From positions 1 through 46,311 of the forward strand of contig JAFOHE010000022.1 of NCBI GenBank assembly GCA_017421975.1: 46,311 nucleotides of DNA, given 5' to 3'. The notes beneath the pieces are model-generated. The model worked only from the letters and a program-made list of their open reading frames with translations. It searched no databases and had not been told where the DNA came from. Source of the DNA: Pseudomonadota bacterium (GTDB lineage: Bacteria; Myxococcota_A; Bradymonadia; UBA4248). Of the stretch, positions 5,954-40,011 are shown one piece after another (positions within the stretch are counted from its first letter, which is position 1; each line of letters starts with the position of its first letter). Position numbers and translations under genes: made by a program.

Positions 5954-6106
5954 GGGGGCGTTGCGGGGGATGCCCCCGCAGAGGGGGTAGCGGCGTATGG
6001 CGCAGAAGGGGGCGTTGCTATCGGCGGAGCCGATACGCAACGCGGCGCGGCTTCTCGCTTTGCTCAATACGCCGCGCCATAGCCGCGCAGGGGGCGTCTG
6101 CCCCCT
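5954..6106 (-). repeat. Dispersed palindromic element (REP/REPIN- or MITE-like), copy 1, long form
   Basis: Near-identical to 18205-18357 and 34011-34164; contains several hairpins; ends GGGGGC...GCCCCC. Confidence 0.92.
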
Positions 6107-6111
6107 CAAAA

Positions 6112-7605
6112 TTAATCGTTATTTTCCCTGTCGCCATCGAGTTTTTTAAGTTTCCGATGGAGGCTTGTGCGTTCGATGGCCAGAACATCCGCCGTTCGAG
6201 AAACATTGTTGCCCAAGAGTTTAAGCGTTGCCTGAATGTAAGCGAATTCGGCAATGGCGCGGAAATCGCGCAGTGGCATGGAGCCTGGTTTGATGGCGGC
6301 GATTTCAGCCATGGGAGATTGATCTTCGGAAGGTGTTATGGGTAGGGCGGCAGCCGTATCATCGATTTGGGGTGCCGATTCTGTGGGTGTGACAGTCGTT
6401 GGCTCTGCTTGTGGTGTATCAGGCAACGGCATGAGGGGGACTTCGTCGGTGACGTCGACGGGAAGATCGGCGAGCGTGACCGTATCGGAACACATGATGA
6501 CGAAGCGCTCACAAATGTTTCGGAGTTCACGGATGTTGCCTGGGTAGCTGTATCGGCTCAACAGATCCATGGCGCGGTCACTGACGTTGAGTACAGGTCT
6601 TCCGTATTCCATGGCGATTTGTTTGAGGAAGACGTTGATGAGGAGAGGGACGTCTTCGAGTCGTTCGCGCAAGGGGGGAACGTGGATAGGCACGACGTTG
6701 AGTCGGAAGTAGAGGTCTTCGCGGAAAGTGCCTTCAGCGACAGCTTTTTTGAGGTCTTTGTTCGTTGCAGCAATGACGCGGACATCGACGGTTTCGAGTT
6801 TTTCGCCACCGACGCGTGTGAACTCACCATTTTGTAGGACGCGCAGGACTTTTGCCTGAGCGGCGAGTGACATATCGCCGATTTCGTCGAGGAAGATGGT
6901 TCCGCCGTCAGCCATTTCGAAGAGACCTCGTTTTTTAACGGCAGCGCCTGTAAATGAACCTTTTTCGTGTCCGAAGAGCTCGCTTTCGATGAGTTCAGAA
7001 GGGATGGCGCTGCAATTAACTTTGACAAAAGAGCGTTTGGCGCGTTGAGACAGGGCGTGGATGGAACGCGCGACGAGGTCTTTTCCGACGCCGGATTCGC
7101 CCAGAATGAGGACTTTTCCCATGGTTGGACCGACGACTTCAACGGATTTCCGGATTTTCTGCATGGCAGGTGAGTTTCCGATCATGCCACAATAACGTTC
7201 GTCGGCGGTTTCGAGAGATTGAACGCGTTGTGAAAGGATGTGGCGCTCTACGGCGTTTCGGACGGTCAAAATGAGACGTTCGCGGTCAATGGGTTTTTCG
7301 AGGAAATCGAACGCGCCTAAGCGCGTGGCGTTGACAGCGTCATTGAGTGTGGCGTGACCGCTCATCATAATAATTTCTGGTCGGTTATCGTCTTCACGGA
7401 TATGATCGAGCATTTCGATGCCGCTCATACCAGACATTTGTACGTCAGCGATGAGAACGTCATAAGGGTGTTCAGCGAGTTTGGAGAGCCCTTCCTCAGC
7501 ACTTGAAGCCGTCTCAATTTCGTAATCTTCGTCCATGAGTACCATACGGACAGTACGACAGATATTCTTTTCGTCATCGACAATCAGGATGTTTGCACAC
7601 GTCAT
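6112..7605 (-). CDS. Sigma54-dependent response regulator (NtrC/NtrX/AtoC family: receiver, AAA+, Fis HTH)
   Basis: ILIVDDE, receiver Asp in ADVQM; GESGVGKD; ELFGHEKGSFTGA; FLDEIG; FREDLYFRLNV; YPGNIRELRN; C-terminal HTH. Confidence 0.96.
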   Translation of the reverse strand: MTCANILIVDDEKNICRTVRMVLMDEDYEIETASSAEEGLSKLAEHPYDVLIADVQMSGMSGIEMLDHIREDDNRPEIIMMSGHATLNDAVNATRLGAFDFLEKPIDRERLILTVRNAVERHILSQRVQSLETADERYCGMIGNSPAMQKIRKSVEVVGPTMGKVLILGESGVGKDLVARSIHALSQRAKRSFVKVNCSAIPSELIESELFGHEKGSFTGAAVKKRGLFEMADGGTIFLDEIGDMSLAAQAKVLRVLQNGEFTRVGGEKLETVDVRVIAATNKDLKKAVAEGTFREDLYFRLNVVPIHVPPLRERLEDVPLLINVFLKQIAMEYGRPVLNVSDRAMDLLSRYSYPGNIRELRNICERFVIMCSDTVTLADLPVDVTDEVPLMPLPDTPQAEPTTVTPTESAPQIDDTAAALPITPSEDQSPMAEIAAIKPGSMPLRDFRAIAEFAYIQATLKLLGNNVSRTADVLAIERTSLHRKLKKLDGDRENND

Positions 7606-7607
7606 AA

Positions 7608-8333
7608 TTATTTAGCCTCATATCCGACAGCCATATTGAAGAGCGGACGATTGGTCGGCTCAATGCCAAGTGATTTTTGTAATTCGGACTGATCACCGCG
7701 CATCATGCGGATGACCGTAGCGAGCCCTTCGGCAGCGCAATAGAGCGCAATATTTTGAGAAACGACGCCTGAATCAATGCCTTGAATAACTTCATTATCG
7801 GCAAAAGAAGAAGTCACGATCAATTCGACGGGGGCGGCTTTGACGGGACGCAGATCACCTTCTGCGACGCGAATGAGTTTGTGTGCGACGTGATCATAAC
7901 GATACGTGGCTTTTTCGAAGGCAACGAAGAGCGATACGCTTTGCAGATTTCGAGCCGATGGAGCGGTGCGCTTGCCGTCTTCGCGATTGATGCCGTTGCC
8001 AGACCAGAGCAGAGCCGAGAGCTGTTCAAGTGAAATCATCTGATCGGTATAACTTCGAATACTGCGTCTGTCCTGTAGGCATTGTGTCAATGTCGCCTTG
8101 ACGGGGAGTGGTTTAGGCAGGCTGATTTCTGCTTCGCCGACGGCGATGGGGGTTTGGGAAACTTTTTGAGCAGGCGCAGGTGCTTCGGCAGTCGGTGTCG
8201 CTTCGGCGGCAGCCGTGTTAGGCGCTTCGGCGGGTGGGGGCGTTACTGGCTGTTGCGGACAATTGCATGGTTCTGCCTGACAGGCAGTGATGAAGAAGCC
8301 GATACTCAGCATAAGACTTATTTTTTTTATCAT
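7608..8333 (-). CDS. Lipoprotein with a SagB/ThcOx-like nitroreductase domain
   Basis: Lipobox ITAC; Pro/Ala linker; RRSIRSY; RTAPSARN; DSGVVSQNIALYCAAEGL. Confidence 0.85.
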   Translation of the reverse strand: MIKKISLMLSIGFFITACQAEPCNCPQQPVTPPPAEAPNTAAAEATPTAEAPAPAQKVSQTPIAVGEAEISLPKPLPVKATLTQCLQDRRSIRSYTDQMISLEQLSALLWSGNGINREDGKRTAPSARNLQSVSLFVAFEKATYRYDHVAHKLIRVAEGDLRPVKAAPVELIVTSSFADNEVIQGIDSGVVSQNIALYCAAEGLATVIRMMRGDQSELQKSLGIEPTNRPLFNMAVGYEAK

Positions 8334-8465
8334 CTGTATTTTACCTCCGAGTTAAAAAATGACGTGGCACGGATGATTGTCTAAATTAACGGAAACGAGC
8401 AAGTTTGGCAACGCGTGACATAAAAAACAGGTCATGCGGCGTGCGTACACATGGCATACAATTTT

Positions 8466-8556
8466 TAGTTTTCAGTTTTCAGTAATCATTCAGTAGTCAG
8501 TAGGCGCGGTCTCGTACTCGCCCCAATGCTTAGCTTCGCCCCGAAGCGTAGTCAGT
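8466..8556 (+). repeat. Degenerate heptamer repeats plus a REP-like GTAGG unit, related to 11042-11210
   Basis: TTTTCAG x2 and TCAGTAG x2, then GTAGGCGCGGTCTCGTACTCGCCCC, then a small TAGCTTCG/CGAAGC[G]TA hairpin. Confidence 0.5.
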
Positions 8557-8736
8557 TTTTCCACACAGCGTGCATTTGCCAGAAGGGGAGGGCAGGTGTG
8601 TTTCCAGGGTATGCTTACATTCATGGCATACGCAAACGATTACGCCTGACGCCTTGTTGCAACATGGCTTGGAGAGTTGAACTTCGTCTTTTGCATTGTT
8701 ATAAAGGAACAGGGGGAGGCCTGAATGGAGATCATT

Positions 8737-11043
8737 ATGAGAAAATCGATTTTTATCCTTATAAGTATCACGATTGCAGCGAGCCTTTTTGGGTGTATTG
8801 ATAAAGATGATAATTTGAACGTTCCAGAAGATGAAATATGCAAAGAAGGTACGCTCAAAGCAGGGCGGGCCAAAGGCCACTGTGGTTGCGACACGGAAGA
8901 CGTGATTAATATGCTGACAGGCCGATATACATGTGATGAGACGGATCCCAATGATCAGGAACGCGTCGATCTTTGTCCGAACGATCCAGATAAAATCGAG
9001 CCTGGTATTTGTGGATGCGGATTAAGTGATGCGCCAAATGATAAAGGTGAAATCTGGTGTTCTTCGCTTGACCTCTGTCCGTTGGATGAGCAAAAAGTCA
9101 GGCCTGGCGTGTGCGGATGTGGTGTCTCCGATGAGATTAATCCTCAGACAGGTCTTTATATTTGTCTTGAAAACAACGTCGATCTTTGCCCGGAAAATCC
9201 CGACAAAAAGACGCCTGGCATTTGTGGATGTGACGAATCGGACGATGTGTATGATCCGGAGCTTGCCGGAACGCTTTTTGAGAGTGTACCGATCTGTCTC
9301 ACCCGTGATCTCGATATGTGCCCCCATGATGCCAATAAAACGCGTCCAGGCAAATGTGGTTGTGGTGTGTCCGATGTCGATACAGATGGTGATGGCTATC
9401 TCGATTGCGTTGATGCCTGTCCAAACGACAAAAATAAATGGGAAGATGAAGGCGTGTGCGGTTGTGGTCTTGTAGACAGCGATGTGAATCTCTCCGATGA
9501 TGACGGCGACGGCGTGCCGAATTGCATCGATATCTGTCCAAACAACGTCTATAAATCGTTCAATACGAAAAACGTCCCACACACCAATGGTAAATACAGT
9601 GAGGATGTTGAAAAATGTGTCCTTGAAGATGGCACGCCGGATTGTGCGCGCATCTATACCGTCTATGAAACGAAGCCACTTTGTGCGCTCATCATTGATA
9701 CACCAGAAGCGCTTATTGAACTTCGTGATGCCTGGAACAATGGTGAGTATGAGCATGTGACGCCGGAACGGGCTTCCTTTATCCTCAAGGAAGATATTGA
9801 TATTGGCGACAACATTCCGATGCTTGAAGACTGGTTTGGCATCGGAACAGAGACGTATCCTTTCTTTGGTATTTTCCTTGGTGAAAAGCATAAGGTATCT
9901 GCTACAACGGGTGGTACTTCACTCGTCTTAGGCAGTTCTGAAACGGATGCTGTTGGTTTGTTTTCCGTCATTCGAGGTGGGGAGACGCCAGCTGTCATTG
10001 ACAATCTTCAAGTTGATCTTTCTTTTACGGGGCATGATCACGTCGGTATTCTTGCGGGTAAAGCTGAGAATGTTTCCATTAAGCACATCAGCGTGACTGG
10101 CAGTGTATCGGGGGAAAGCAACATCGGTGGTCTTGTCGGTTTTGTGTCCCGTGGTATGCTCGAAAATGTCTCAGCCAATGCGACCGTGAGTGGAAACGTC
10201 AACGCTATTGGCGGTCTTATCGGCATGCTTTCTGGTTCCGTCGTGTCTCATGCCTTTGTTTCGGGCAATTCGGTTAATATTTCAAGCCGTGAATTGGCGA
10301 CTGAAACGGGTGGCTTTGTCGGTGTCATGGCAGATGCTTCTAGCATCAGCAATGCATATTCGAGTGGTAACGTATCAGGATATGCCTATACCGGTGGTTT
10401 TGTTGGAGCCATCAAAGGTGCGTCAACGCTTATCAATGCGTATGCTTTTGCCTCCGTAACCTGTCAGTCTTCGCCCTGCGCAGGCATGGTGGCGACGATT
10501 ATGGAGGAATCGACGCTCAATAATGTTTATGCGACCAATTATGTGGTCAACAGTATTGTCGAAGACACCTCTGGTTCGACAGAGGGAGAACCAGATGGTG
10601 GAGGTGCTGATGGTAACAATGAAGGTAGTGAGCCATCTTCGGATGATCCGACACCAGGTGAAGGCAATGGCAGCGACGATGGCGGACACCCGCAGACGGA
10701 GCCTACCGATATCTGTGATACGGAACCCATCACAGGGCTTATTGCCGAAGTGTGCGGTGAAAATACCATCGTCAATTTTTATGCATGGACTGATGCTTAT
10801 GAAGTAAGCGTACCGGAAAGTCTTCATGACAAATTGCAAAAATTCAGTTTTAAGAATCTCATTGCCACACTTGAAAATGGCAGTTATCTTAAAACGCAGC
10901 TTAACAAAAATATTAATTGTGACAGCAAAGGAATATGTATTCTTGATGACGTGACATACGAACCATGGAATCAAATTCAATTTCGATTAAATAATATGTC
11001 ATTATCTATTCCTGCATTTACATCATTGAAAACGACATATTAG
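8737..11043 (+). CDS. Large lipoprotein with Cys-rich thrombospondin type 3-like repeats and a GLUG-motif beta-helix region (track start 8725)
   Basis: Lipobox LFGC; five DxCPxDxxKxxPGxCGC-type repeats; DTDGDG and DDDGDGVPN Ca-binding motifs; repeated GGLVG/GGLIG/GGFVG. Confidence 0.85.
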   Translation: MRKSIFILISITIAASLFGCIDKDDNLNVPEDEICKEGTLKAGRAKGHCGCDTEDVINMLTGRYTCDETDPNDQERVDLCPNDPDKIEPGICGCGLSDAPNDKGEIWCSSLDLCPLDEQKVRPGVCGCGVSDEINPQTGLYICLENNVDLCPENPDKKTPGICGCDESDDVYDPELAGTLFESVPICLTRDLDMCPHDANKTRPGKCGCGVSDVDTDGDGYLDCVDACPNDKNKWEDEGVCGCGLVDSDVNLSDDDGDGVPNCIDICPNNVYKSFNTKNVPHTNGKYSEDVEKCVLEDGTPDCARIYTVYETKPLCALIIDTPEALIELRDAWNNGEYEHVTPERASFILKEDIDIGDNIPMLEDWFGIGTETYPFFGIFLGEKHKVSATTGGTSLVLGSSETDAVGLFSVIRGGETPAVIDNLQVDLSFTGHDHVGILAGKAENVSIKHISVTGSVSGESNIGGLVGFVSRGMLENVSANATVSGNVNAIGGLIGMLSGSVVSHAFVSGNSVNISSRELATETGGFVGVMADASSISNAYSSGNVSGYAYTGGFVGAIKGASTLINAYAFASVTCQSSPCAGMVATIMEESTLNNVYATNYVVNSIVEDTSGSTEGEPDGGGADGNNEGSEPSSDDPTPGEGNGSDDGGHPQTEPTDICDTEPITGLIAEVCGENTIVNFYAWTDAYEVSVPESLHDKLQKFSFKNLIATLENGSYLKTQLNKNINCDSKGICILDDVTYEPWNQIQFRLNNMSLSIPAFTSLKTTY

Positions 11044-11210
11044 TGGTCAGTGGTCAGTAGTCAGTGGTCAGTGGTCAGTGGTCAGTAGTAGGGGCGTGGT
11101 CTAAGACCCGCCCCGATTTGGTAGTCAGTAGTCAGTGGTCAGTGGTCAGTAGTCAGTAGTCAGTGGTCAGTGGTTAGTAGCAATCCGTAGGTGTGGTCTT
11201 TGAGCCGCCT
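11042..11210 (+). repeat. Two AGTRGTC heptamer arrays, each followed by a GTAG-type REP-like unit
   Basis: 7 units at 11042-11090 and about 9 units at 11120-11182. Hairpin GTA-GGGGCG(t)GGTC-taa-GACC-CGCCCC at 11088-11114; degenerate copy at 11187-11210. Confidence 0.88.
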
Positions 11211-11250
11211 CTGGGTGAGAGCTGCTATATTATATTAATTTTGTAATAAC

Positions 11251-11329
11251 GGTGTTAAATGCGTTTATATTTAGATTGAAGGTGTTAAATGCGTTTATAT
11301 TTAGATTGAAGGTGTTAAATGTATTTATA
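11251..11329. repeat. 30-bp tandem repeat, about 2.6 copies
   Basis: GGTGTTAAATGCGTTTATATTTAGATTGAA exact at 11251 and 11281, partial at 11311. Confidence 0.9.
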
Positions 11330-11467
11330 CTGAAATAACAGAATAGCATGGTTTCCGTGGAGACATAACATATTATGATATAGTATGTGTATGATGGTGG
11401 ATTTGTTTTTGGCAAACGCGAGAAGGCTAAAGCACGCGGTTATGGCGGGGCAACCTGATTATGGTTA

Positions 11468-11549
11468 CGGCGGCGTATTTTTGGTTAACCAAAAATAGCC
11501 GCCGGCGTGCCGCGTATTTGTCTGCCAAGTATGGCAGACAAATAGCGGT
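11468..11549. repeat. Two adjacent long hairpins, each with one extrahelical G
   Basis: CGGCGGC[G]TATTTTTGGTT/AACCAAAAATAGCCGCCG (11468-11504) and GCCGC[G]TATTTGTCTGCCA-agta-TGGCAGACAAATAGCGGT (11509-11549). Confidence 0.88.
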
Positions 11550-11561
11550 CGCAAATAAAAA

Positions 11562-11578
11562 TTGGCACTTTATTTGCA
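11562..11578 (+). promoter_or_regulatory. Sigma54 (-24/-12) promoter
   Basis: TTGGCAC-TTTAT-TTGCA with canonical GG-N10-GC spacing, about 60 nt upstream of ATG 11638. Confidence 0.75.
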
Positions 11579-11637
11579 TGATATGAATTGGACTTAGGAA
11601 GTCTCGTGTAGGCTTTTTGCACAGATGGAGTGTCGTT

Positions 11638-12366
11638 ATGCACAAGATACAAAAGATATGGATTGCACTTTTAGGTTGTATGTCGCTCGTATTATTGAGT
11701 TCGGTGCCAGCATACGCGGAGCCGCATCGTCCGCCTGATGGTGGAGGCTATCATTACGATTCGGGTCGAGGTCATCATAATCCGCCACCGCCTAAAAAAG
11801 GCCGTGTTCACCATGATAATGGTGGTGCAGCCGTGGCCGTTGCAGCTGGGGCAGTAGCAGTCGCTGTGTTGGCAGATGCCGCGCTGAATACAGCAGCTCC
11901 AGTAGATGATGTTTATGTGTTTGGTGTCGGTGTGCGAGGTTTTGGCAACGCAGTCACGGATATGCGGACGGGCGGAGGCATTGGTGCTTATGTTTGGGTG
12001 CGGCCGATTCGCTGGATTTCAGTCGAGGCTTATTCGGATTTGGTATTTAATGAGCGTCGATGTTATGGCAGAGATGAGGGGTATCTTCGCATACCATTTT
12101 ATGTAGGGCTTCGCGCTCATGTGTTTGATTATAGTGCCTTTGATTTGTATGGAGCCGTTGCGGGTGGTGTGAATTTCCAGTATGGTCATGACGATCAGGA
12201 AGGTTTTGGCGGAGGTATGCATATCGGAGGCGGTGTCTCTTTTAAGGCAAGCAAATTCGATATTGGTTTTGATATTCGCTATACGGTAGAATCGAATGAC
12301 CTTGATTTTGACCGTTCAGTGATTCATGGTTGCACATTTGCATTGACCATGGGTTTGGCCGTATAA
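11638..12366 (+). CDS. Secreted protein, probable small outer-membrane beta-barrel with a His/Pro-rich N-terminus (track start 11617)
   Basis: RBS GGAG; signal peptide ending AYA; alternating Gly/aromatic beta-strands. Confidence 0.7.
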   Translation: MHKIQKIWIALLGCMSLVLLSSVPAYAEPHRPPDGGGYHYDSGRGHHNPPPPKKGRVHHDNGGAAVAVAAGAVAVAVLADAALNTAAPVDDVYVFGVGVRGFGNAVTDMRTGGGIGAYVWVRPIRWISVEAYSDLVFNERRCYGRDEGYLRIPFYVGLRAHVFDYSAFDLYGAVAGGVNFQYGHDDQEGFGGGMHIGGGVSFKASKFDIGFDIRYTVESNDLDFDRSVIHGCTFALTMGLAV

Positions 12367-12416: not shown

Positions 12417-12430
12417 AATGGAGATTGTAA

Positions 12431-18204: not shown

Positions 18205-18357
18205 GGGGGGCGTTGCGGGGGAATCCCCCGCAGAGGGGGTAGCGGCGTATGGCGCAGTTGGGTGCGTTGCTATCGGTAAAACCGATACGCAACGCGGCGC
18301 GGCTTCTCGCTATGCTCAATACGCCGCGCCATAGCCGCGTAGGGGGCGGCTGCCCCC
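18205..18357 (-). repeat. Dispersed palindromic element, copy 2, long form
   Basis: Near-identical to copy 1, with a compensatory change in the inner hairpin (C-G to T-A). Confidence 0.92.
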
Positions 18358-18729
18358 AAAAATAGGCACCATGTTGTGTGTTAAGGCCCGTAAATCAATG
18401 CCATTGATTTGGATAAATATAACTACATGTAGGTCTAAAAATGATCCCCCATAAGTGTTATGCCAGGCAATTGCGTGTTGTTACGAAAAAAAGTTAATGT
18501 TCAGTATAATTAATTTTATATGAACATGTGTCTTTTTGAACCCACTGTCTGCCGAAGCTTCTATTTTTCTTGAACTTGTGGTGGAAGTGATCGAAAAATG
18601 ACGACGCGTAAGATGAAAATATGATAAATGATAGAATTGCGTCGAGTGACGCATATTTTTTGAAAGAAAGCCTGTTGTGGCCGGTGAGCTTTTGCTGGTC
18701 GGAATATGCTATGTATATACGGAGGAAAA

Positions 18730-19515
18730 ATGAGATTTCGTATCACCTGTCTTGTGCTCGCAGTCCTTTTTGCATTTCCGTCGATGGGATTTGTTTGTGC
18801 GACGCGCGTCGAAAAGATGGAAGCGGACATAGAGGCTCTCCAGATTCAGTTTAACGATGTTCAGAAGCGGCTGAATAACGATCAGACGCAGCTCACGTCG
18901 ATGATTTTACGCGCGGACAAGAAACTTGAAGAACTGAGTGGTACGCAGGACAAATCCGCAGAATCGGTAGCGCAACAGAACGTTCAGCTTGCGCTTGAGC
19001 TTGAACAGGAACGTGCTGAACTTGCGAGTATGCGTGGACGCCTTGAAGTGCAGCAAAAGACGATAGAATCGCTTCAGGAGAGTTTGCAATCGGTGATGGG
19101 GTCGATCTCATCGACGGGTGGCGGCAATGCAGTGATATTGCCATCCGATCAGGCTGGACTTGAGGCCTATATCATTCAGAAACGTACAGCTGGTGACAAG
19201 GCAGCGCTCAAGACGGCGATTGCCGAGTATGTATCGCGCTATCCGGATGACGCGAAACTTGAGTCATATCTCGCTGAATATGTCGGTATTCTCTATGCGG
19301 ATAAACAGTATGGCGAAGTCATTACGAGTTCGACGATGTATTTGCAGAAGTTCCCCAACGGGGCCAAAAAAGCTGATGTGATTTACCACATGGGCATGGC
19401 AGGCATGGAGACGGGCAATTGTCAGCTTGCGACGATTTCATTTAAGGAGTTGAAGAAGTTGGATGCCAATCGTGCGAAAGACGCGCTTGATCTGGCTCAA
19501 ACAAAGTGTAAGTAA
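18730..19515 (+). CDS. CpoB/YbgF-like protein (coiled coil plus TPR) (track start 18706)
   Basis: RBS GGAGG; signal peptide; long coiled coil; TPR-like YLQKFPNGAKKADVIYHMG. Confidence 0.7.
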   Translation: MRFRITCLVLAVLFAFPSMGFVCATRVEKMEADIEALQIQFNDVQKRLNNDQTQLTSMILRADKKLEELSGTQDKSAESVAQQNVQLALELEQERAELASMRGRLEVQQKTIESLQESLQSVMGSISSTGGGNAVILPSDQAGLEAYIIQKRTAGDKAALKTAIAEYVSRYPDDAKLESYLAEYVGILYADKQYGEVITSSTMYLQKFPNGAKKADVIYHMGMAGMETGNCQLATISFKELKKLDANRAKDALDLAQTKCK

Positions 19516-26022: not shown

Positions 26023-26143
26023 GTAGGGGGCAGCCGCCCCCTACGCGGCGATTGGCTGTATGTGAGGGCGTGTCGCGACACGCCTTCACATACAGCCAAT
26101 TCGCCGCTACCCCCTCTGCGGGGGATTCCCCCGCAACGCCCCC
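26023..26143 (+). repeat. Dispersed palindromic element, copy 4, short form with its own 50-bp central palindrome
   Basis: Ends match the reverse complement of copies 1-3. Centre (26051-26100) is ATTGGCTGTATGTGAGGGCGTGTCG/CGACACGCCTTCACATACAGCCAAT with one G.T pair. Confidence 0.9.
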
Positions 26144-32018: not shown

Positions 32019-33935
32019 TTATGAGAGTTCGTCGATAATTTTTTGTGCGAGTTTGAGCGGAATTTCTGCTGTTCTGGCGATGTTGTCTGGCGTCTGGCGT
32101 GCGATATTGGCAACGCTGCCGAATGCCTGAAGCAGTTTGGCGCGTCGTTTCGGGCCTATGCCTTCAATGGCATCGAGACGGCTTTTCATCGTCTCACTCT
32201 CACGCGTGCGGCGATGGAAGCCAATGGCGCGTTTGTGTGTCTCATCTCGAATGTTGGCCATCAACAGAATGACGGGATCATTTTGTTCAAGGATAAGCGG
32301 TTCTTCGATGTTAGGATAGACGAGACGTTCGGGACTGTGTTCGACTTCGTGTGCGGCATTTTCGGACTGCATACGGGCTTTGGCTATGCCAATGACATCG
32401 AAGGCACCAGTCATGCCGCTTGTTTCGACAGCAGCCATGACGGCATTTACCTGGCCGTGACCGCCGTCAATCAGAAGCAGGTCGGGCATTTCACAAAAGG
32501 ATGCTTCTGCATTTGAGAGATGGTGTTCTTCCTCTTCGGAAGGCTTTAAATAGCGCAATCTTCGGGAGAGAACTTCATTGAGGCTTCCGAAGTCGTCCTG
32601 GCCCTGCGTCGTTCGGATCTTGAATGTTCGGCAACGTGAGGTATCTAGTTTTCCCTGAATGAAGACGACCATGGCAGCGACAATTTGACCGCCTTGCATG
32701 TTGGAAATATCGTAACATTCGATGCGGTGGGGGTAGCGTTGCAGGCCGAGTTTTTGCTCGACGAGGAGAAGCAGATCGCTCTCGTTCGTGCGGCGTTGGT
32801 TGACTTGTTGTTCGGCATTGAGCTGAGCGGTCTCGAGCAGAGAGGATTTGGTACCACGTTGTGGAAAAGTGAGCGTGATGTGTCGGCCGCTCAGGGCTTC
32901 GCACGTTTCCTGAAGGAGGTCTTTTTGTTCCTCAAGCGTGCGATCAAGGATGATTTCGGACGGATAATTGTCAAACGTCTGATAATGATGAACCATGATT
33001 TGAAGCAGAATGTCGGCAGGCGGGGTAACGCTGTCTCTGGCTTCATACGTCTGCATGTGTATCAGACGCCCCTGACGAACGAGAAGAACGACAACACAAC
33101 GCATGATGTCGTCACCGGACATGGCCCAGTAGTCCTGATTGACGGGGGTTTTCTGGACGATCTTTTGTTGTTCACAGATATCTTCTATGGCGGCAATTTG
33201 GTCGCGGTAAAGCGCGGCCTGTTCAAAGGCGAGCTGTTCTGCGGCGAGGTTCATGCGGGCAAGAAGCTTTGTTTTTAGGTCGTCATATCGGCCGGAAAGA
33301 AAGAGGATGGCATCCTGGCACTGGCGCAGATATTCGTATTCATCGACCTGGATGAGGCAAGGCCCAAGACAGCGGTGAATCTCATATTGAAGGCAGGGGC
33401 GCGTTCGATTTGCAAAAACTTTGTCATTGCACGTCCTGAGCTGGAAATACCGATTGAGGACGGCAAGACTCCGGCGGCATGCCTGACCGGAAGGATAGGG
33501 GCCGAAGTAATGGGCTTTGTCATTTTTCCGCCGTCGAACGATTTCGACGCGAGGCCATTTTTCGTTTAGATCAATGCGAAGTTGGGGCATGTCCTTATCA
33601 TCTTTGAGAAGGACGTTGAAACGCGGGCGATGGCGTTTGATAAGGCCGGCCTCGAGGATGAGGGCTTCGCGTTCATTTTTTGTGATGATGACGTCAATTT
33701 TTTCAAGCACGTCGCCCAACATGGAAACGAAAGCGCGATCATCGTGACCGCTGAAATACTGGCTCACACGTCGATGCAGGTTTTTTGCCTTGCCGACGTA
33801 AATGACCGTGTCTTGGCGGTCTTTCATGAGGTAACAGCCGGGGTTATCTGGTATTTTGGGGAGTTCCGTAGTCGGATCAAACATCGTGGTCACATGGGGG
33901 CAGGGGGCGAATTGAGAAGAAGATGTGTGTGGCAC
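32019..33935 (-). CDS. uvrC: Excinuclease ABC subunit C (alternative start 33884)
   Basis: PGCYLM...IYVGKAKNL (GIY-YIG); IECYDIS; PDLLLIDGGHGQ; RDETH; GIGPKR (HhH). Confidence 0.97.
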   Translation of the reverse strand: MPHTSSSQFAPCPHVTTMFDPTTELPKIPDNPGCYLMKDRQDTVIYVGKAKNLHRRVSQYFSGHDDRAFVSMLGDVLEKIDVIITKNEREALILEAGLIKRHRPRFNVLLKDDKDMPQLRIDLNEKWPRVEIVRRRKNDKAHYFGPYPSGQACRRSLAVLNRYFQLRTCNDKVFANRTRPCLQYEIHRCLGPCLIQVDEYEYLRQCQDAILFLSGRYDDLKTKLLARMNLAAEQLAFEQAALYRDQIAAIEDICEQQKIVQKTPVNQDYWAMSGDDIMRCVVVLLVRQGRLIHMQTYEARDSVTPPADILLQIMVHHYQTFDNYPSEIILDRTLEEQKDLLQETCEALSGRHITLTFPQRGTKSSLLETAQLNAEQQVNQRRTNESDLLLLVEQKLGLQRYPHRIECYDISNMQGGQIVAAMVVFIQGKLDTSRCRTFKIRTTQGQDDFGSLNEVLSRRLRYLKPSEEEEHHLSNAEASFCEMPDLLLIDGGHGQVNAVMAAVETSGMTGAFDVIGIAKARMQSENAAHEVEHSPERLVYPNIEEPLILEQNDPVILLMANIRDETHKRAIGFHRRTRESETMKSRLDAIEGIGPKRRAKLLQAFGSVANIARQTPDNIARTAEIPLKLAQKIIDELS

Positions 33936-34010
33936 ATCATAATATATGCCCTGTCATCAGGGACACGCTCGGCAAGCGATCACCCACAAAATGATGCGGA
34001 TAAATGCGTT

Positions 34011-34164
34011 GGGGGGCGTTGCGGGGGAACTCCCCCGCAGAGAGGGTAGCGGCGTATGGCGCAGAATGGGGCGTTGCTATCGGCGGAGCCGATACGCAAC
34101 GCGGCGCGGCTTCTCGCTTTGCTCAATACGCCGCGCCATAGCCGCGTAGGGGGCGGCTGCCCCC
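34011..34164 (-). repeat. Dispersed palindromic element, copy 3, long form
   Basis: Near-identical to copies 1 and 2. Confidence 0.92.
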
Positions 34165-34185
34165 ACCCAAAGGCGGGTGGAAGCT

Positions 34186-34737
34186 TTAGTTTGCCTTCGT
34201 CCAGGTGAGTGTGAACGTATCGACGCTTCTCAGCACTTTGACTGTGGCGGTTTGAGCGGATTTGAGTTTTTCCCACGTTGCGAAGTATTCATCAGGATTT
34301 TTAGGGAGTTTGCCGTCGATGGCCACGATGATGTCGCCGATGTCGAGATCGACGCCGTCGAATTTCCCGCGGTTAAATTTGACGATTTTGTAGCCAAGGA
34401 GCGCAGAGCCGTCGCGGACGGGATCGAGTGTGACGCGACCGAGAATGACGGCGGGGGAATCGGCAAAAAAGGCGTCATAATCGGCGGAAGGCACGGTGAA
34501 AGAGCGTTCGACGGCAGGTTTGGCGGGTTGAGGCATTTCGCCGCTGACCGAGACGTTGATTTCGGTGCCCATGGGAACTGAGGAAGGATGTTTGTCGATT
34601 TCTTCCTGGAAACGGGCCACTTCCTGAGGCGTGAGGTCGCGCTTGTCAGGCGTTGAAGCGCAGGCAAGGATGTTCATCGCCGTAAAGAGAAGCAGGACTG
34701 TCGGGATGAGACCGTTGAAAAAGCGTGTCATGCGCAT
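34186..34737 (-). CDS. PDZ-domain lipoprotein (GspC C-terminal-like)
   Basis: Lipobox ILAC; LLGYKI...LDIGDIIVAIDG...VKVLR. Confidence 0.7.
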   Translation of the reverse strand: MRMTRFFNGLIPTVLLLFTAMNILACASTPDKRDLTPQEVARFQEEIDKHPSSVPMGTEINVSVSGEMPQPAKPAVERSFTVPSADYDAFFADSPAVILGRVTLDPVRDGSALLGYKIVKFNRGKFDGVDLDIGDIIVAIDGKLPKNPDEYFATWEKLKSAQTATVKVLRSVDTFTLTWTKAN

Positions 34738-34875
34738 GCGTATCCTCCGTGAAGAAAAAAGGCGTTGGGATTGAAATAAGGGAATGATCCGTTAAAAAAA
34801 TAGACGGAAATCACAGGTTATTTTAATATAGCCTGATTTCCGGTTGTCGGCAAAAAATGTTGCGGAGGAGAACAG

Positions 34876-35544
34876 ATGAATCTTGGGCGATGGCATTTGT
34901 GCCGTTCAGCAGTATGGCTGATGGTGAGTGTGGCTTTATCAGCGTGTGTGTGCGCCGTGGCGTCGGAGGCTTATGCGAGTGCGGTTGTGGCGCTTGATGG
35001 AAGCCAGCGAGCGGCGATGAGTGATGCGATCGTGCATGGGGTTGTGTTGTCGTCCGAGCCGGTGGTGCTTGAGGATGGCCGATTGGTGACGCGGCACACG
35101 GTGCGCGTGATCCGATGGGTCAAGGCGGACGGTGCGCGTGTCCATGCGGAAACCGTCCATATTTATACGCGCGGTGGGCGCATCGGCGATCAGGTGACAC
35201 ACGTGTCAGGGGAGGCGCAGATGGATCCCGGGGAAGAAGTGGTCATTTACCTGATCGCGTTGTCATCGGATGCGGGGGAAAAGCGCTATTTTAGTCTTGG
35301 CATGGCGCAGGGAACCTATATTGTGCTTGAACGCGGAGAAGAGAGGCGCGTCGTCCGTTCCGATGTAAGAATGCGTCGTCGAGCGAGTCAGGCGACACGT
35401 GCGCGGGCATCGGTGGTGGTTCAGCCGGAAGTGGGGGATCAGACGTTGGATGCGTTTGTGGCGCAGATTGAAAAGGATATCGCTATGGGGCTTCGTCGTG
35501 AGGATGTGATGCGGCAGCTGCCTGCAAGGAGAGTTGTGCCATGA
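34876..35544 (+). CDS. Secreted hypothetical protein, translationally coupled to the matrixin gene
   Basis: Signal peptide; SDAIVHGVV, GGRIG, PGEEV, GMAQG; ATGA overlap with the next gene. Confidence 0.75.
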   Translation: MNLGRWHLCRSAVWLMVSVALSACVCAVASEAYASAVVALDGSQRAAMSDAIVHGVVLSSEPVVLEDGRLVTRHTVRVIRWVKADGARVHAETVHIYTRGGRIGDQVTHVSGEAQMDPGEEVVIYLIALSSDAGEKRYFSLGMAQGTYIVLERGEERRVVRSDVRMRRRASQATRARASVVVQPEVGDQTLDAFVAQIEKDIAMGLRREDVMRQLPARRVVP

Positions 35545-36416
35545 AGCATCTGGTGACCATAGTCTGTGTAGGGCTTGTAGGAGGGCTTTTTGCCGGTGAG
35601 CGGACAGCGTGGGCCTGGGAACAATCACAGACGTGTTATGACGCGCTCATGGATTGCCAGGAAGGGCTTGAACCGCTTCCGACGGCCTGGGAAAAACCTT
35701 GCATATCCATTTATTTAAATGAAAACGGGACGTCGCAGATGCCGTTTGATACAGTCCATTCGATTGTAGAATCGGCGGTGCTTGCCTGGAACCATCCGGG
35801 TGTTTCATCCTTGGGTATGCATTTTTCGGGACTGACGAACGAGACGCGTGTTGGTTACAATCCGTATACGTCGAGGAATGCAAACATTATCGTTTTTAGG
35901 GATGATGCGTGGCATGAGGATCCCAGCATTATGGCGCTGACGAGCGTGACGTATCGCAATTCGAGTGGTCAGATCTATGATGCGGATATGGAGATCAATA
36001 CGTATCTCTATGATTTTGGCGTGGTGTCACCGCGCAATGAGCGTGACGTGATTGATCTTCAGAACACGATTACGCATGAACTCGGGCACGTCGCCGGGCT
36101 TGACCATTCGGATGTATCGACGGCGACGATGTATCCGTATTCGACGGGCGGGGTGACGTATATGCAGACGCTTGATGCGGATGATCTTGAGGCCATTGGG
36201 ACGATATATCCGCCTGGTGATGCAGCGTCCTGTCAGTTTCATGACGCCTATTTTGAAAAACCGGACTGTGACATGGACAAGCCCTGTGGGTCGGACGGTG
36301 TGTGTTCGGTAAAAATGCATCAAGGGGCAAAAAAACCGTTTTTAGCCCTTGCCATCGTTCTTTTTGCGCTTATTCTGACATCTGTCATTCGACGGTATGT
36401 TGCAAGGACGTCATGA
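35541..36416 (+). CDS. Matrixin (M10) family Zn metalloprotease with a C-terminal sorting signal
   Basis: HELGHVAGLDH; Met-turn ATMYP; LDADD; tail GVCS-linker-TM-RR. Confidence 0.9.
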   Translation: MKHLVTIVCVGLVGGLFAGERTAWAWEQSQTCYDALMDCQEGLEPLPTAWEKPCISIYLNENGTSQMPFDTVHSIVESAVLAWNHPGVSSLGMHFSGLTNETRVGYNPYTSRNANIIVFRDDAWHEDPSIMALTSVTYRNSSGQIYDADMEINTYLYDFGVVSPRNERDVIDLQNTITHELGHVAGLDHSDVSTATMYPYSTGGVTYMQTLDADDLEAIGTIYPPGDAASCQFHDAYFEKPDCDMDKPCGSDGVCSVKMHQGAKKPFLALAIVLFALILTSVIRRYVARTS

Positions 36417-36439
36417 GCCATGGCGGGACGATATACAGA

Positions 36440-37535
<1,096 letters not shown>

Positions 37536-37560
37536 TTTCATGAGCTTCTGATGCTTTTTG

Positions 37561-37598
37561 AGAGCCAGAGTTCCCGTAACGGGCTCTGGCTTTTTTTT
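37561..37598 (+). terminator. Intrinsic terminator between gap and pgk
   Basis: AGCCAGAG(tt)CCCG-taa-CGGGCTCTGGCT followed by a long T run. Confidence 0.85.
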
Positions 37599-37717
37599 CG
37601 CCCCCCATGGGGGTATGATGCTTTTGAGAGGGCAACATTGCCTTCAGTTAGGGAGCGTGTCCGAGCGTAGGATGCGTGCCCATTTCTCATCTTTCTTCCT
37701 AAGGAGAAACTCGTCAC

Positions 37718-38980
37718 ATGGCTTATCTCGATCATATTAAATCCGTTGAAGATCTCGACCTCAAAGGTAAACGCGTTTTTATCCGTGTCGATTTTAACGT
37801 TCCCCTCGACAAAGGTGTGATCACAGATGATTATCGCATCCGTCAGGCACTTCCGACGATCCAGTACGTCATTCGCAACGGTGGTCTTCCGATCGTCGCT
37901 TCACACCTTGGCCGTCCGAAGGCAAATCCCAGCCCCGATTGTTCGCTTGCACCCGTTGCTGAACGTCTCCGTGAACTTTTGCCGGAACGTGAGATTATTT
38001 TCGCAGACGACTGCATCGGTGATGGCGTTGTCGAAATGTCGAAAAAACTTCAGCCGGGCCAGATTCTCCTCCTCGAAAACCTTCGTTTCTATGAGGAAGA
38101 AGAAGGCAAACCCCGTGGCAAATTTGCAACGGAGGAAGAAAAAGCCGCTGCCAAGGACGCTGTAAAAGCAAGCCAGAAAAAGTTTGCCGCTGCGCTCGCA
38201 TCCCTGGCGGACGTCTATGTCAACGATGCTTTCGGTACCTGCCATCGTGCCCATGCATCCATGGCAAAAATGGTTCCTGCCTTTGGCAACAACAAGGCCT
38301 GCGGTTTCTTGCTTCAGAAAGAAATCAAATTCCTCGGTAACATCGTTTATGATCCCGAGCATCCTTATGTCGCCATCCTCGGCGGCGCCAAGGTCTCCGA
38401 TAAGATTGGCGTGATTGAAAGCCTGATCGAAAAATGTGACCAGATCTGCATTGGCGGTGCCATGGCCTACACGCTTCTCGCAGCCAAGGGCGTCGATGTG
38501 GCTTCGAGCCGCGTTGAAGCGGATGCGATGGACGTTGCCAAAGCGATTCTCGAAAAAGCTGCCAATTCTAAATGCGAGCTTCTTCTGCCCGTTGATCACG
38601 TCGTTTCGACGGCGCTTGATGATACGACGCCTTGCGAAATCGTCGAGAGCTTTAGTGCCGGTCAGATGGGCCTCGATATCGGTCCCAAGACGCGCGAACT
38701 CTACGCCAATGTTATCAAAAAAGCGAAATCCGTCTTTTGGAATGGCCCCATGGGTGTTTTCGAAAATGCCCGCTATGCAGCCGGTACCATCGCTGTTGCT
38801 ACGGCTCTGACCGAATGTGACGGTTGCACGGTCGTCGGTGGTGGTGATTCTGCTGCCGCAATTCGTCAGTTCGGCCTCGACAGCAAAGTTACCCACGTCT
38901 CTACGGGTGGCGGTGCTTCCCTCGAACTCGTCGAAGGCAAGGAACTTCCTGGTGTCGAAGCACTCCGTATCGCTGAATAA
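37718..38980 (+). CDS. pgk: Phosphoglycerate kinase
   Basis: RVDFNVP; SHLGRP; LLENLRF; VNDAFGTCHRAHAS; WNGPMGVFE; STGGGASLE. Confidence 0.98.
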   Translation: MAYLDHIKSVEDLDLKGKRVFIRVDFNVPLDKGVITDDYRIRQALPTIQYVIRNGGLPIVASHLGRPKANPSPDCSLAPVAERLRELLPEREIIFADDCIGDGVVEMSKKLQPGQILLLENLRFYEEEEGKPRGKFATEEEKAAAKDAVKASQKKFAAALASLADVYVNDAFGTCHRAHASMAKMVPAFGNNKACGFLLQKEIKFLGNIVYDPEHPYVAILGGAKVSDKIGVIESLIEKCDQICIGGAMAYTLLAAKGVDVASSRVEADAMDVAKAILEKAANSKCELLLPVDHVVSTALDDTTPCEIVESFSAGQMGLDIGPKTRELYANVIKKAKSVFWNGPMGVFENARYAAGTIAVATALTECDGCTVVGGGDSAAAIRQFGLDSKVTHVSTGGGASLELVEGKELPGVEALRIAE

Positions 38981-39111
38981 CCAATGTCTTGTGGGGCGCG
39001 TCGAATGTGATGCGCCTCATATTGCAAGGTGCTCAAGACGATTTATTATCCCATCTTTGCGACCAAGCCGTAGCCCATGGCAAAATCGTGCATTAAAGGA
39101 GAATTATAAGG

Positions 39112-39867
39112 ATGCGTAAACCTTTTATCGCTGGTAACTGGAAAATGAACAACACGCGCGCGGCAGCCAAAGAGCTCGTCAATGCGCTCAAACCCCTCGT
39201 CGCCGACGTTAAAAACGTCGAAATCGCCGTTGCCCCCACTTACACATGCCTCGCCGACGTCGTGGATCTCCTCAAGGGCTCCAATATCGAAGTCAGTGCT
39301 CAAAACATTTCTTATGCCAAATCGGGTGCCTATACGGGCGAAATCAGCGCCGATATGCTTAAGGATGTCGGTGTGACACACACGATTATCGGCCACAGCG
39401 AACGTCGCCAGTATTTCGGTGAGACGGATGAAAGCGTTGCGAAACGCGTTCGTGCTGCCCTCGACAACGATATCACACCAATCGTTTGCGTTGGTGAATC
39501 GCTCGCGGAACGTGAAGCCGGAAAAACGCTCGACGTTGTCTTAGGACAAATCATCAACGGACTTTCAAGCGTCAAAAATGAAGAAGCTGCTCGCGTTGTC
39601 GTCGCTTACGAACCCGTCTGGGCTATCGGAACCGGCAAAACGGCGACACCTGAACAGGCTCAGGAAGTCCATGCCGCGATTCGCGCCAAACTCGCTGATA
39701 TCTTTGGCGCTGATAATGCCGAAGCCATGCGTATTCAGTATGGCGGCAGCGTTAAGGCTTCCAATGCCAAAGAAATCCTCGGCCAAAAAGATATCGATGG
39801 TGCACTCGTCGGTGGTGCGTCGCTTAAAGCGGCTGATTTTGCTGCCATTATTAAAGCTGCAGAATAA
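39112..39867 (+). CDS. tpiA: Triosephosphate isomerase
   Basis: AGNWKMN; GHSERR; AYEPVWAIGTG; YGGSV; LVGGASL. Confidence 0.98.
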   Translation: MRKPFIAGNWKMNNTRAAAKELVNALKPLVADVKNVEIAVAPTYTCLADVVDLLKGSNIEVSAQNISYAKSGAYTGEISADMLKDVGVTHTIIGHSERRQYFGETDESVAKRVRAALDNDITPIVCVGESLAEREAGKTLDVVLGQIINGLSSVKNEEAARVVVAYEPVWAIGTGKTATPEQAQEVHAAIRAKLADIFGADNAEAMRIQYGGSVKASNAKEILGQKDIDGALVGGASLKAADFAAIIKAAE

Positions 39868-39889
39868 AGATCGTTTTGGGTTTTCTCAT

Positions 39890-40011
39890 GTAGGGGGCTT
39901 TGCCCCCTTACGCAGCTATTGGAACGCCGTAGTGACATGAAGTGACATGTCTCTACGGCGTTCCAATACGCCGCTATCCCCCCTTGCGGGGGATACCCCC
40001 GCAACGCCCCC
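39890..40011 (+). repeat. Dispersed palindromic element, copy 5, short form with a third type of central hairpin
   Basis: Shared ends. Centre (39917-39968) is TATTGGAACGCCGTAG-t-GACATG-aagtga-CATGTC-t-CTACGGCGTTCCAATA. Confidence 0.9.

Follow-up and report, generated by a model that had tools for sequence, protein, structure and literature searches.

A REP/BIME-like family of hairpin-forming repeats in a ruminant-gut bacterium resembles known repeats and shares its ends with several phyla

Between the genes of a ruminant-gut bacterium lie about 250 copies of a small non-coding repeat that folds into hairpins. The family is REP/BIME-like and resembles known repeats, yet its ends are shared among several phyla; a Y1 (RAYT-like) enzyme probably acts on its members in single-stranded form. 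No other non-coding repeats are as common in bacteria as those of the REP type, and to our knowledge it is unsettled how they spread and why they persist. The window, that is, the whole stretch of 46,311 nucleotides analysed, had been given five copies of a palindromic element in an initial annotation. All five are real, at the positions and in the orientations assigned to them, and the consensus proposed for the two ends is correct. The copies and their parts are as follows:

5954..6106, plus strand: copy 1, type-I element with a long "D-class" core
5963-5979: hairpin 1 of copy 1
5990-6086: central GTAG-tagged bulged hairpin of copy 1, its stem made of GCGGC (5990-5994), bulged G (5995), TAT (5996-5998), ATA (6079-6081) and GCCGC (6082-6086)
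6014..6041, minus strand: simple REP unit GTTGC-G-TAT-hairpin-ATA-GCAAC, nested in reverse orientation in the core of copy 1
6090-6105: hairpin 3 of copy 1
11470..11502, plus strand: free (unframed) simple REP unit GCGGC-G-TAT-hairpin-ATA-GCCGC
18205..18357, plus strand: copy 2, type-I element with a D-class core
18266-18293: nested simple REP unit of the GTTGC type within copy 2
26023..26143, minus strand: copy 4, type-I element with a perfect palindromic core of 25+25 nt
26117-26135, 26045-26107 and 26023-26044: hairpin 1, central hairpin and hairpin 3 in the fold of copy 4
34011..34164, plus strand: copy 3, type-I element with a D-class core
34073-34100: nested simple REP unit of the GTTGC type within copy 3
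39890..40011, minus strand: copy 5, type-I element with a third core

A repeat search of the window returns copies 1-3 as a direct repeat family, D1 (5954-6110, 18206-18362 and 34013-34169), at 90-91% identity, and pairs its members in inverted orientation with 26099-26143 in copy 4 (pair I11) and 39966-40016 at copy 5. One long core is common to copies 1-3, and copies 4 and 5 each hold another self-complementary core. Each DNA fold contains three hairpins, and the folding of copies 4, 5 and 1 is far outside chance (z = -11.1, -10.4 and -3.5, respectively, against dinucleotide shuffles).

The element consists of three successive hairpins arranged head-to-tail on one strand. The first part opens with G4-5 CGTT and continues with GCG4-5, a loop and C4-5GC. 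GGGGG-TA then leads into the central hairpin, which has a 5-bp stem (usually GCGGC/GCCGC), a bulged G, TAT/ATA and a hypervariable palindromic core. The third part is GTA followed by G5, a loop (often AGACTT) and C5. Framed copies carry GTAG tags, in the contexts GGGG-GTAG-CGGC-G-TAT...ATA-GCCG and C-GTAG-GGGG/CCCC; the GTAG-tagged imperfect palindrome that marks a REP is thus present in framed copies and absent from free simple REPs.

Pairing within this structure is maintained through compensatory changes, and variation is located in the loops. Hairpin 1 is closed by G-C in 171 of 179 parsed copies and by A-T in the other 8, with no mismatches. The lengths of the G, G and C runs covary, being (5,5,5) in 81 copies and (4,4,4) in 43, and fully compensated inner-stem variants are found in 28 copies. 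In an alignment of 41 sequences from several phyla, which is biased because its own-genome rows were chosen for variety (the 179-copy parse is the unbiased count), 91.7% of cells pair compared with 77.9% in shuffles, and 72 cells are changed on both sides compared with 22.8, a level that none of 500 shuffles reached. In the eight-copy D subfamily, the stems are nearly invariant or compensated and variation is restricted to the loops.

The genome itself is a MAG-like assembly of 3.63 Mb in 384 contigs, 92% complete. The 14-mer GGGGCGTTGCGGGG occurs in it 173 times, where our own arithmetic gives an expectation of ~0.03. There are 230 matches to the left end with at most two mismatches, and 197 of them have the right end within range; these complete elements measure 74-166 nt, with a median of 114. 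A count of the family by class gives 195 type-I copies, 52 of type II (a variant left end) and 38 with other left ends. The claim of a high-copy family is borne out by the 197 complete type-I copies, as is that of an intergenic one: 155 of the 197 overlap crude ORF calls by 30 nt at most, if at all, and the other 42 overlap calls that seem to run through the repeat, the calls being made by a longest-ORF heuristic rather than a gene finder. One copy, on contig C179, consists of hairpins 1 and 3 only.

The boundaries of the repeat are those of the whole element. In 617 full-length pairs of copies, homology starts at offset 0 or -1 in 359 and its commonest end is offset 0 (192 pairs). Copies with the same core type align across ends and core, and homology breaks at the element ends, which indicates that the whole unit is copied. 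Exchange of the central cassettes, as had been suggested, is not demonstrated, since homology spans ends and core as one unit. The reported lack of a target-site duplication is confirmed, with a 3-nt direct repeat at the junction in 1 of 195 copies against 2.4 expected from shuffled pairings, and a search for flank complementarity at the junctions found none. Over the same number of copies, the left flank has a weak preference for T at -2 (83/195) and -3 (72/195) and no conserved target tetra- or pentanucleotide.

The central cores are where copies differ most in sequence and agree in shape. A single-hairpin fold is adopted by 164 of 174 cores (median z -7.3), and the 174 fall into 133 clusters at ~80% identity, 123 of which are singletons. 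The centre is therefore conserved in structure rather than sequence, as first supposed; in place of three interchangeable cassettes there is a continuum of more than 100 cores, some of which hold nested repeat units. Nested insertion into hairpin loops and arm-to-arm correction are candidate routes by which the cores may have diversified.

The lineage's own simple REP, X5-G-TAT-hairpin-ATA-X5', forms the central module, and the frame supplies its GTAG tag. With a core of at most 60 nt, the pattern occurs 607 times in the genome compared with 32-35 times in shuffled genomes; with a core of up to 110 nt, it occurs 668 times compared with 24-199 for eleven control motifs, and 127 of the 668 lie inside type-I elements. 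The stems comprise 77 different 5-mers, so that the fixed part is only C-G-TAT / ATA-G, and the units often form tandem arrays (50 doublets, 12 triplets and 2 quadruplets). A simple REP with only about eight fixed nucleotides and a fold points to what an enzyme may read.

We hold with moderate confidence that these non-coding palindromic elements form a composite family of the REP/BIME kind, whose members are copied as whole units, in the form of folded single-stranded DNA, by a RAYT-type Y1 enzyme. In such a process, the element would act as folded single-stranded DNA, a RAYT-type Y1 HUH enzyme would recognise the tagged, bulged hairpin and then cut and join, and the whole unit would be copied to new intergenic sites without target duplication. 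The putative agent is the protein encoded at C157:1120-1635, the genome's only Y1 or RAYT-like gene and the only PF01797 match in a genome search. The absence of a transposase from the window, as first described, accordingly holds for Y1 enzymes. The protein has HFH and YYEH motifs, and its best NCBIfam match is the REP-associated tyrosine transposase (REP_Tyr_transpos, E 1.6e-18), at 67 bits and under the 80-bit cut-off, with IS200 at 26 bits; a PDB sequence search with it gave no matches.

The surroundings of this gene agree only in part with the expectation that a RAYT gene would be flanked by the element's ends. The RAYT-like gene exists, and it is flanked by simple REPs, with no framed element adjoining it and no terminal inverted repeat found around it. 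Three simple REP units lie 27-140 nt past its stop codon. Upstream there is a different GTAG palindrome, GGGCGGGTCTGAGACCCGCCC, in three copies, which leaves the cognate repeat of the gene ambiguous. In one relative (G006), a RAYT-type gene has two simple REP units directly downstream. None of 22 Y1 loci in 12 genomes of the family is flanked by a clear 5G element, and only three partial or diverged left-end-like matches were seen there (at L075, L083 and L090). RAYT-type genes are present in G003, which has no copies of the element, and none was found in G001, which has six, so element copy number does not track the presence of RAYT in these incomplete MAGs. Two further observations count against this reading: no pair of copies is more than 95% identical, and the free simple REPs lack the GTAG tag.

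Placement relative to genes, from ORF-based calls, is close to neutral. The left end points toward a gene's 5' end in 92 cases and toward a 3' end in 82, and intergenic sites are tandem, divergent and convergent in the proportions 114/30/29 against a genome background of 977/298/275. This lack of orientation bias suggests that the element acts at the DNA rather than the transcript level. Of the neighbouring copies separated by less than 5 kb, 21 pairs are inverted and 3 direct; this argues against a simple replication-strand bias, and the copying model gives no account of it. No gene is common to the inverted pairs, unrelated ORFs being present in all 18 intervals examined. Several of these ORFs are recognisable from sequence as housekeeping genes.

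Copy number also differs sharply between close relatives. The 14-mer is found 173 times in this genome compared with 6 and 16 times in two same-genus genomes (the control column of this pattern search, and of those run for the motif in other phyla and plasmids, is uninformative, as the motif reads the same backwards). Three orthologous intergenic regions in two same-genus genomes, both of sister species, lack the element; at 66-87% identity over the matched stretches the exact insertion points are not alignable. In contigs of three other DNA samples, no joint skipping the whole element was found at copies 3, 4 or 5, and there is thus no sign of current mobility. Copy 5 is bridged, with one differing letter, by a contig of run X4, the only bridging run, and contigs of other samples enter copy 3 from both sides; all four comparison runs are contigs that break at repeats. 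Short "joints" within copies 3 and 4 were considered as excisions and rejected, being cross-mappings of family members with shorter cores. In the RNA run X15, no piece crosses a window copy among the matches listed.

One could consider the repeats as structures that serve the host rather than mobile DNA, that is, RNA or DNA hairpins kept by selection at each locus, where they would stabilise mRNA 3' ends, stand in for terminators or bind nucleoid or topology proteins. Host-serving structural roles have been proposed for the REP/BIME of E. coli as well. Such a role would fit the almost invariant or compensated stems and highly variable loops of the D subfamily, the pairing preserved family-wide and the lack of any sign of an empty site at copies 3-5 in contigs of other samples. 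At the site of copy 5, two sister species have, on a by-eye reading, an intrinsic-terminator-like hairpin after the orthologous gene, and a family member lies on an RNA-library contig (X15), where DNA carry-over is possible. We nevertheless find a host role unlikely: orientation bias to genes is absent and 3' ends are not preferred, the counts for divergent promoter regions (30) and convergent regions (29) being in line with the background. Flank composition reveals no U-run after the hairpins, copy number varies about 30-fold within the genus, and Rfam has no match at the gathering threshold in the window and seven foreign loci, nor any beyond chance level at E ≤10. A classical MITE moved by a DDE transposase is highly improbable and was disfavoured already. 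The elements are small, non-coding, dispersed and intergenic like a MITE, but they have no terminal inverted repeats, their two ends differ, the target-site duplication is absent, and the inverted copy pairs share no gene over the 18 intervals, compared by ORFs rather than by a family search. An integron attC site, a Tn3-type TIME, a tRNA-like cloverleaf, a G-quadruplex and a CRISPR repeat were dropped as candidates, as their defining motifs appear to be missing from the sequence.

The ends extend well beyond this lineage. A 32-base end pattern retrieves 42 stretches in Myxococcota, Prosthecobacter/Verrucomicrobiota, Nitrospirae and Spirochaetaceae MAGs, and the ends are also found on Treponema saccharophilum pTS1 and on sphingomonad plasmids. 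The constant ends thus recur almost unchanged in Spirochaetota, Nitrospirota, Verrucomicrobiota and sphingomonad plasmids, five phyla in all, with 510 copies in the Spirochaetaceae MAG and 48 in a Nitrospirae MAG. The G-TAT motif gave no hits in spirochaete loci (78 kb) or Verrucomicrobia loci (32 kb), compared with a density of ~16 per 100 kb in the own family. No empty site emerged from plasmid backbones related to Tardibacter pHSL1, and a search of a phage collection yielded no match. A divergent Y1-like gene of ~170 aa is present in at least 15 copies in the Spirochaetaceae MAG; an element lies within ~1 kb at 12 of 17 such loci, and by hand count 11 of 13 elements have their left end towards the gene.

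These data raise the possibility of a horizontally spreading, IS200/IS605-like or "TIRtron"-like hairpin transposon, with hairpins 1 and 3 as the mobile frame, the central REP as lineage-acquired cargo and, as its enzyme, a Y1-like protein missing or unassembled in the present genome. The idea, which we consider doubtful, draws on the ends being nearly unchanged across phyla while the central hairpin differs by lineage, on the multicopy Y1-like gene near elements in the Spirochaetaceae MAG and on the C179 copy reduced to its outer hairpins. It is weakened by the spirochaete protein, which has F-Y-I at the expected HUH motif and weak family scores (PF01797 at 21 bits, under the 23-bit cut-off) and has no counterpart at E ≤10 in the own genome, 92% complete. 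Gene and element lie at varying distances from each other among the spirochaete loci and hence do not form a single fixed unit; with one element per 6.5 kb in that genome, some closeness is to be expected; and the left flank shows no conserved target motif beyond the weak T at -2 and -3. More speculatively still, and in our view improbable, the frame could be a distinct unit travelling horizontally in at least five phyla, its centre filled by the local REP or palindrome, with new palindromes entering the loops, the loops remade at each copying, and, as agent, a divergent, possibly HUH-less Y1-like protein of the kind encoded by the multicopy gene of the Spirochaetaceae MAG. Remaking of the loops at each copying event would explain why variation is confined to them, and the frame would then represent a new class of hairpin transposon that moves as single-stranded DNA and carries modular cargo.

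A REPIN is two REPs in inverted orientation, and a BIME is made of alternating inverted REPs (Y/Z) with defined linker motifs between them. The family had been called REPIN-like; its hairpins run head-to-tail and neither end is the inverted repeat of the other, so the strict definition of a REPIN does not cover it. The mosaic, head-to-tail with nested units, is likewise outside the definition of a BIME and is BIME-like only in its modularity. Miniatures of IS200/IS605 insert 3' of a fixed tetra- or pentanucleotide and show replication strand bias; the PATEs derived from them have unlike ends with subterminal hairpins, no TIR, no TSD and a presumed single-stranded DNA substrate. PATEs are alike in their unlike hairpin ends and their lack of TIR and TSD, and differ in that here there is no conserved left-flank target tetra- or pentanucleotide and no full-length parent was found.

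The likeness to the REP/BIME of Enterobacteria and Pseudomonas, as described in PMC3479197 and PMC3733652, is close: short extragenic imperfect palindromes in hundreds of copies, with a 5' GTAG and a stem irregularity (here the bulged G), form mosaics with other motifs and accompany a single-copy RAYT-like gene with REPs adjoining. According to the text of PMC3479197, E. coli TnpA-REP binds the single-stranded REP hairpin and requires both the 5' GTAG and a stem irregularity. The differences are that three hairpins stand head-to-tail here, head-to-tail dimers being described as rare there, and that the simple REP stems are almost sequence-free, the frame is common to several phyla, and there is no 3'-end bias. 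REPINs (Bertels and Rainey), as PMC3116915 and PMC3337134 present them, are non-autonomous long-hairpin units of ~100 nt, persistent in their lineages alongside a single-copy RAYT. Our elements share the non-autonomy, the long hairpins, the size and a single-copy RAYT-like gene; they differ in being asymmetric, with unlike ends that occur in five phyla, whereas REPIN-RAYT systems are mostly inherited vertically in the account of the RAREFAN preprint. End modules almost letter-identical across phyla are unexpected if that inheritance is the rule.

The initial annotation did not recognise the architecture as a described one, and precedents do exist. The text of PMC3733652 (Di Nocera et al. 2013) reports REPs that lie within other palindromes, and also REPs joined to unrelated stem-loops; the latter include, in Pseudomonas, hundreds of copies of "Degenerated GTAG-1 units adjoined to unrelated stem-loops". 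It also describes TIRtrons/TIRYT, Y1 genes with flanking inverted, partly self-complementary repeats that occur as dispersed families too. The REP-stem-loop fusions and TIRtrons resemble the composite build seen here and the spirochaete arrangement of gene and element; the TIR motif GGGGWSAS given in that text is not matched by the ends here, and an identical family may stand in the paper's figures or supplements. A search of the literature on REPIN/RAYT and on the element's sequence strings, with the figures and supplements of PMC3733652 outside its scope, found no earlier description.

The clean contrast between stems, which are kept or compensated, and loops, which are free, offers a means of weighing selection against symmetry produced by repair. 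On the practical side, assemblies of the MAGs of this ruminant-gut lineage are interrupted at the ~250 stable hairpins per genome, which also give rise to spurious ORFs.

Five copies of a palindromic element had been read in the window as a family with constant ends around interchangeable central hairpins, and direct sequence inspection bore out the positions and sequences described. The features of the window are as follows, a simple REP unit being X5-G-TAT-hairpin-ATA-X5'.

5954-6106, forward: copy 1
18205-18357, forward: copy 2
34011-34164, forward: copy 3
26023-26143, reverse: copy 4
39890-40011, reverse: copy 5
6014-6041, 18266-18293 and 34073-34100: reverse-oriented simple REP in the long core of copies 1 to 3
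about 11090-11116: GGGCGGGTCTGAGACCCGCCC palindrome

A repeat search of the window returned one direct repeat family (5954-6110, 18206-18362 and 34013-34169; identity 90-91%), the left ends of which form inverted repeats with 26099-26143 and 39966-40016. In single-stranded DNA folds, both strands of copies 4 and 5 yield three clean hairpins (z -11.1, -10.4 and -12.5), and copy 1 takes the same fold, less stably (z -3.5).

The window corresponds to contig C174, one of 384 in a 3.63-Mb assembly (47.8% G+C, 92% complete), and the sequencing runs that contain the window come from gut metagenomes, bovine, sheep and others. The 14-mer of the left end occurs 173 times in this genome. With up to two mismatches there are 230 matches, 197 of which also have the right end, and these complete copies have a median length of 114 nt (range 74-166 nt). 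Most of them (179 of 197) can be parsed into blocks in the order G4-5 / CGTT / GCG4-5-loop-C4-5GC / 2-4 nt / G5 / TA-GCGGC-G-TA(T) / core / (A)TA-GCCGC-G(T/C)A / G5-loop-C5. This amounts to a first hairpin, a GTAG-tagged central hairpin carrying the core, and a third hairpin. In a second class, type II, ...GAGAACGA stands in place of hairpin 1. Counted through the central and right modules, there are 195 type I elements, 52 of type II and 38 with other left ends. Some copies have extra palindromes within the loop of hairpin 1 or 3, or duplicated modules, and one copy, on contig C179, consists of hairpins 1 and 3 alone.

What is conserved in this family is structure. Hairpin 1 is closed by a G-C pair in 171 of the 179 parsed copies and by A-T in the other 8, with no mismatch. 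Three run lengths vary together (first G run, hairpin G run, C run): they are (5,5,5) in 81 copies and (4,4,4) in 43. GCGGC/GCCGC forms the inner stem of 93 copies, and 28 others have a fully compensated variant of it. This tally of parsed own-genome copies is the unbiased count of pairing. When 41 short copies from several phyla are aligned, 91.7% of cells pair compared to 77.9% in shuffles, a figure that is biased upward because the 20 own-genome rows were picked for variety; cells changed on both sides number 72 compared to 22.8, a value equaled by none of 500 shuffles, and pairing in slid controls is 39-53%. Among the eight copies with the long core of window copies 1 to 3, the differences lie nearly all in loops, and two of the eight have compensated stem changes.

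The cores themselves are mosaics. A single-hairpin fold is seen in 164 of the 174 cores that reach 8 nt or more (median z -7.3). Clustering the cores at about 80% identity gives 133 groups, of which 123 are singletons and the three largest have 17, 16 and 7 members, so the three cassettes of the initial annotation are a sample of a continuum. At the apex of many cores sits a mini-palindrome, RGACGY-N4-12-RCGTCY, which occurs 205 times in the genome compared to 33 after shuffling. It may serve as a binding site for a protein or be another mobile palindrome. This mini-palindrome family, GGACGTTCCATGGAACGTCC / GAGACGTGTCACGACACGTCTC, has examples at positions 19364 and 19529 of contig C55, and some of its copies stand alone.

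The simple REP, the motif that underlies the central hairpin, is abundant in its own right. With a perfect 5-bp stem required, the motif X5-G-TAT-core-ATA-X5' with a core of up to 60 nt has 607 matches compared to 32-35 in shuffled genomes; with a core of up to 110 nt it has 668, compared to 24-199 for eleven control motifs. Of these 668, 127 lie within type I elements. The free units, those outside framed elements, have a median length of 28 nt and 77 different stem 5-mers; pairing extends past TAT/ATA in 356 of 495, and tandem arrangements include 50 doublets, 12 triplets and 2 quadruplets. The only fixed positions are C-G-TAT and ATA-G. Density is equally high in loci of other genomes of the family, at about 16 per 100 kb, and the motif is absent from 78 kb of Spirochaetaceae loci and from 32 kb of Verrucomicrobia loci.

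The boundaries of the framed element can be located by comparing copies. In 617 pairs whose alignment covers 90% or more of each element, homology starts at offset 0 or -1 in 359. The most common end point is offset 0 (192 pairs), and a second group of 123 pairs stops 9-11 nt before the right end is reached. The flanks show a weak preference for T at -2 and -3 and are A/C-rich and G-poor on the right side. Neither target-site duplication nor complementarity between flanks was found at element junctions in this genome. There is no sign of very recent copying, since the closest copy pair is 95% identical.

When genes are called from ORFs, the elements lie between genes, their tandem, divergent and convergent shares match the genome background, and they show no orientation bias relative to genes. 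Of neighboring type I copies separated by less than 5 kb, 21 pairs are inverted and 3 direct (45 and 19 for all adjacent type I pairs). Copy number varies between relatives: within the same genus, two genomes carry the motif 6 and 16 times, one genus of the family lacks it, and another genome has 126 copies. The element is absent from three orthologous intergenic regions in sister species, which are too diverged for an exact empty site to be defined. After the gene ending at 39867 (window 39868-39890), copy 5 follows here, and two sister-species loci (L107 and L110) have a terminator-like hairpin and a T run. In near-identical strains from three other DNA samples, one contig bridges copy 5, others extend into copies 3 and 4 from each flank, and no contig has a joint that skips a whole element.

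The ends reach well beyond this lineage. A 32-base left-end pattern matches at least 42 stretches, in Myxococcota and in metagenome-assembled genomes titled Prosthecobacter/Verrucomicrobiota, Nitrospirae and Spirochaetaceae; the non-Myxococcota genomes matched carry 510, 48, 7, 6 and 2 copies. In a plasmid collection, the ends are found on Treponema saccharophilum pTS1 and on sphingomonad and other alphaproteobacterial plasmids. Common to all are the left end and a central hairpin of lineage-specific sequence. The right end is GGGGG-AGACTT-CCCCC in the own-genome, Spirochaetota and sphingomonad copies and GGGG-AAGGCTTT-CCCC in the Verrucomicrobia and Nitrospirae copies. In Tardibacter pHSL1 (L117, L119, L120) and Verrucomicrobia (L003, L010, L027), the three-hairpin motif terminates a longer conserved noncoding stretch. 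This stretch measures about 370-410 bp in Prosthecobacter; on the plasmid, at least about 40 bp of it is common to the three copies and about 320 bp to two of them. The three pHSL1 copies lie on one strand, one of them between ardC and ssb.

Which enzyme might handle these elements can be approached through the Y1 genes. The sole Y1 match of the genome (contig C157, 1120-1635) encodes 171 aa and contains the motifs HFH and YYEH, and its top NCBIfam match is the REP-associated tyrosine transposase (RAYT; E 1.6e-18, 67 bits compared to a cut-off of 80; IS200, 26 bits). No terminal inverted repeats (TIRs) surround this gene. Three simple REP units lie 3' of its stop codon, and a relative (G006) has two directly 3' of a RAYT-type gene. 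Upstream, a different GTAG palindrome, GGGCGGGTCTGAGACCCGCCC, from the family of GTAGGGGCGTGGTCT-AAG-ACCCGCCCC (16 full and 51 half-site matches), is present three times. A Spirochaetaceae genome (G045, L056-L072) has a divergent Y1-like gene of about 170 aa, in a unit of about 850 bp present in at least 15 copies, with F-Y-I replacing HUH and a PF01797 score of 21 bits. An element is often nearby with its left end facing the gene, a suggestive association, although dense repeats and variable spacing confound it. In several elements of this genome, the hairpin 1 loop contains a conserved insert of about 120 nt.

As described in the available text on the Escherichia coli enzyme TnpA-REP (PMC3479197), binding requires a single-stranded hairpin, a stem irregularity and a 5' GTAG, and the cut falls at CT dinucleotides. 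All the features that this substrate needs are present in the framed central hairpin. By this analogy a RAYT-type enzyme would act on the family, with gene proximity speaking for the simple units only. Such a putative mechanism is plausible and about as apt to hold as to fail. Across the genomes of the family, element copy number does not correspond to RAYT presence. The proposal of a nonautonomous, REP-like element is supported in part: the lack of target-site duplication, the conserved structure and the GTAG-tagged hairpin favor it. None of the Y1 genes of the family genomes is flanked by a clear framed element.

Going by the available text of Di Nocera et al. 2013 (PMC3733652), REPs comprise GTAG- and CGTC-tagged superfamilies and include compensatory variants in stems, self-complementary inner loop parts of up to 27 bp, other palindromes with REPs inserted, unrelated stem-loops joined to REP units in hundreds of copies, and TIR families that flank Y1 genes. 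The present family falls within this range of arrangements, as a variant. Compared to these text descriptions, it stands out in its three head-to-tail hairpins, in the near-free stem sequence of its simple REP and in ends common to several phyla.

The window holds other repeats as well. At 11028-11194, (GTCAGTG/GTCAGTA)n heptamer tandem repeats flank the GTAG-tagged palindrome GTAGGGGCGTGGTCT-AAG-ACCCGCCCC; three 30-bp tandem units occupy intergenic positions 11235-11324, and 33-bp tandem repeats at 41302-41499 lie within a long ORF (41190-43103).
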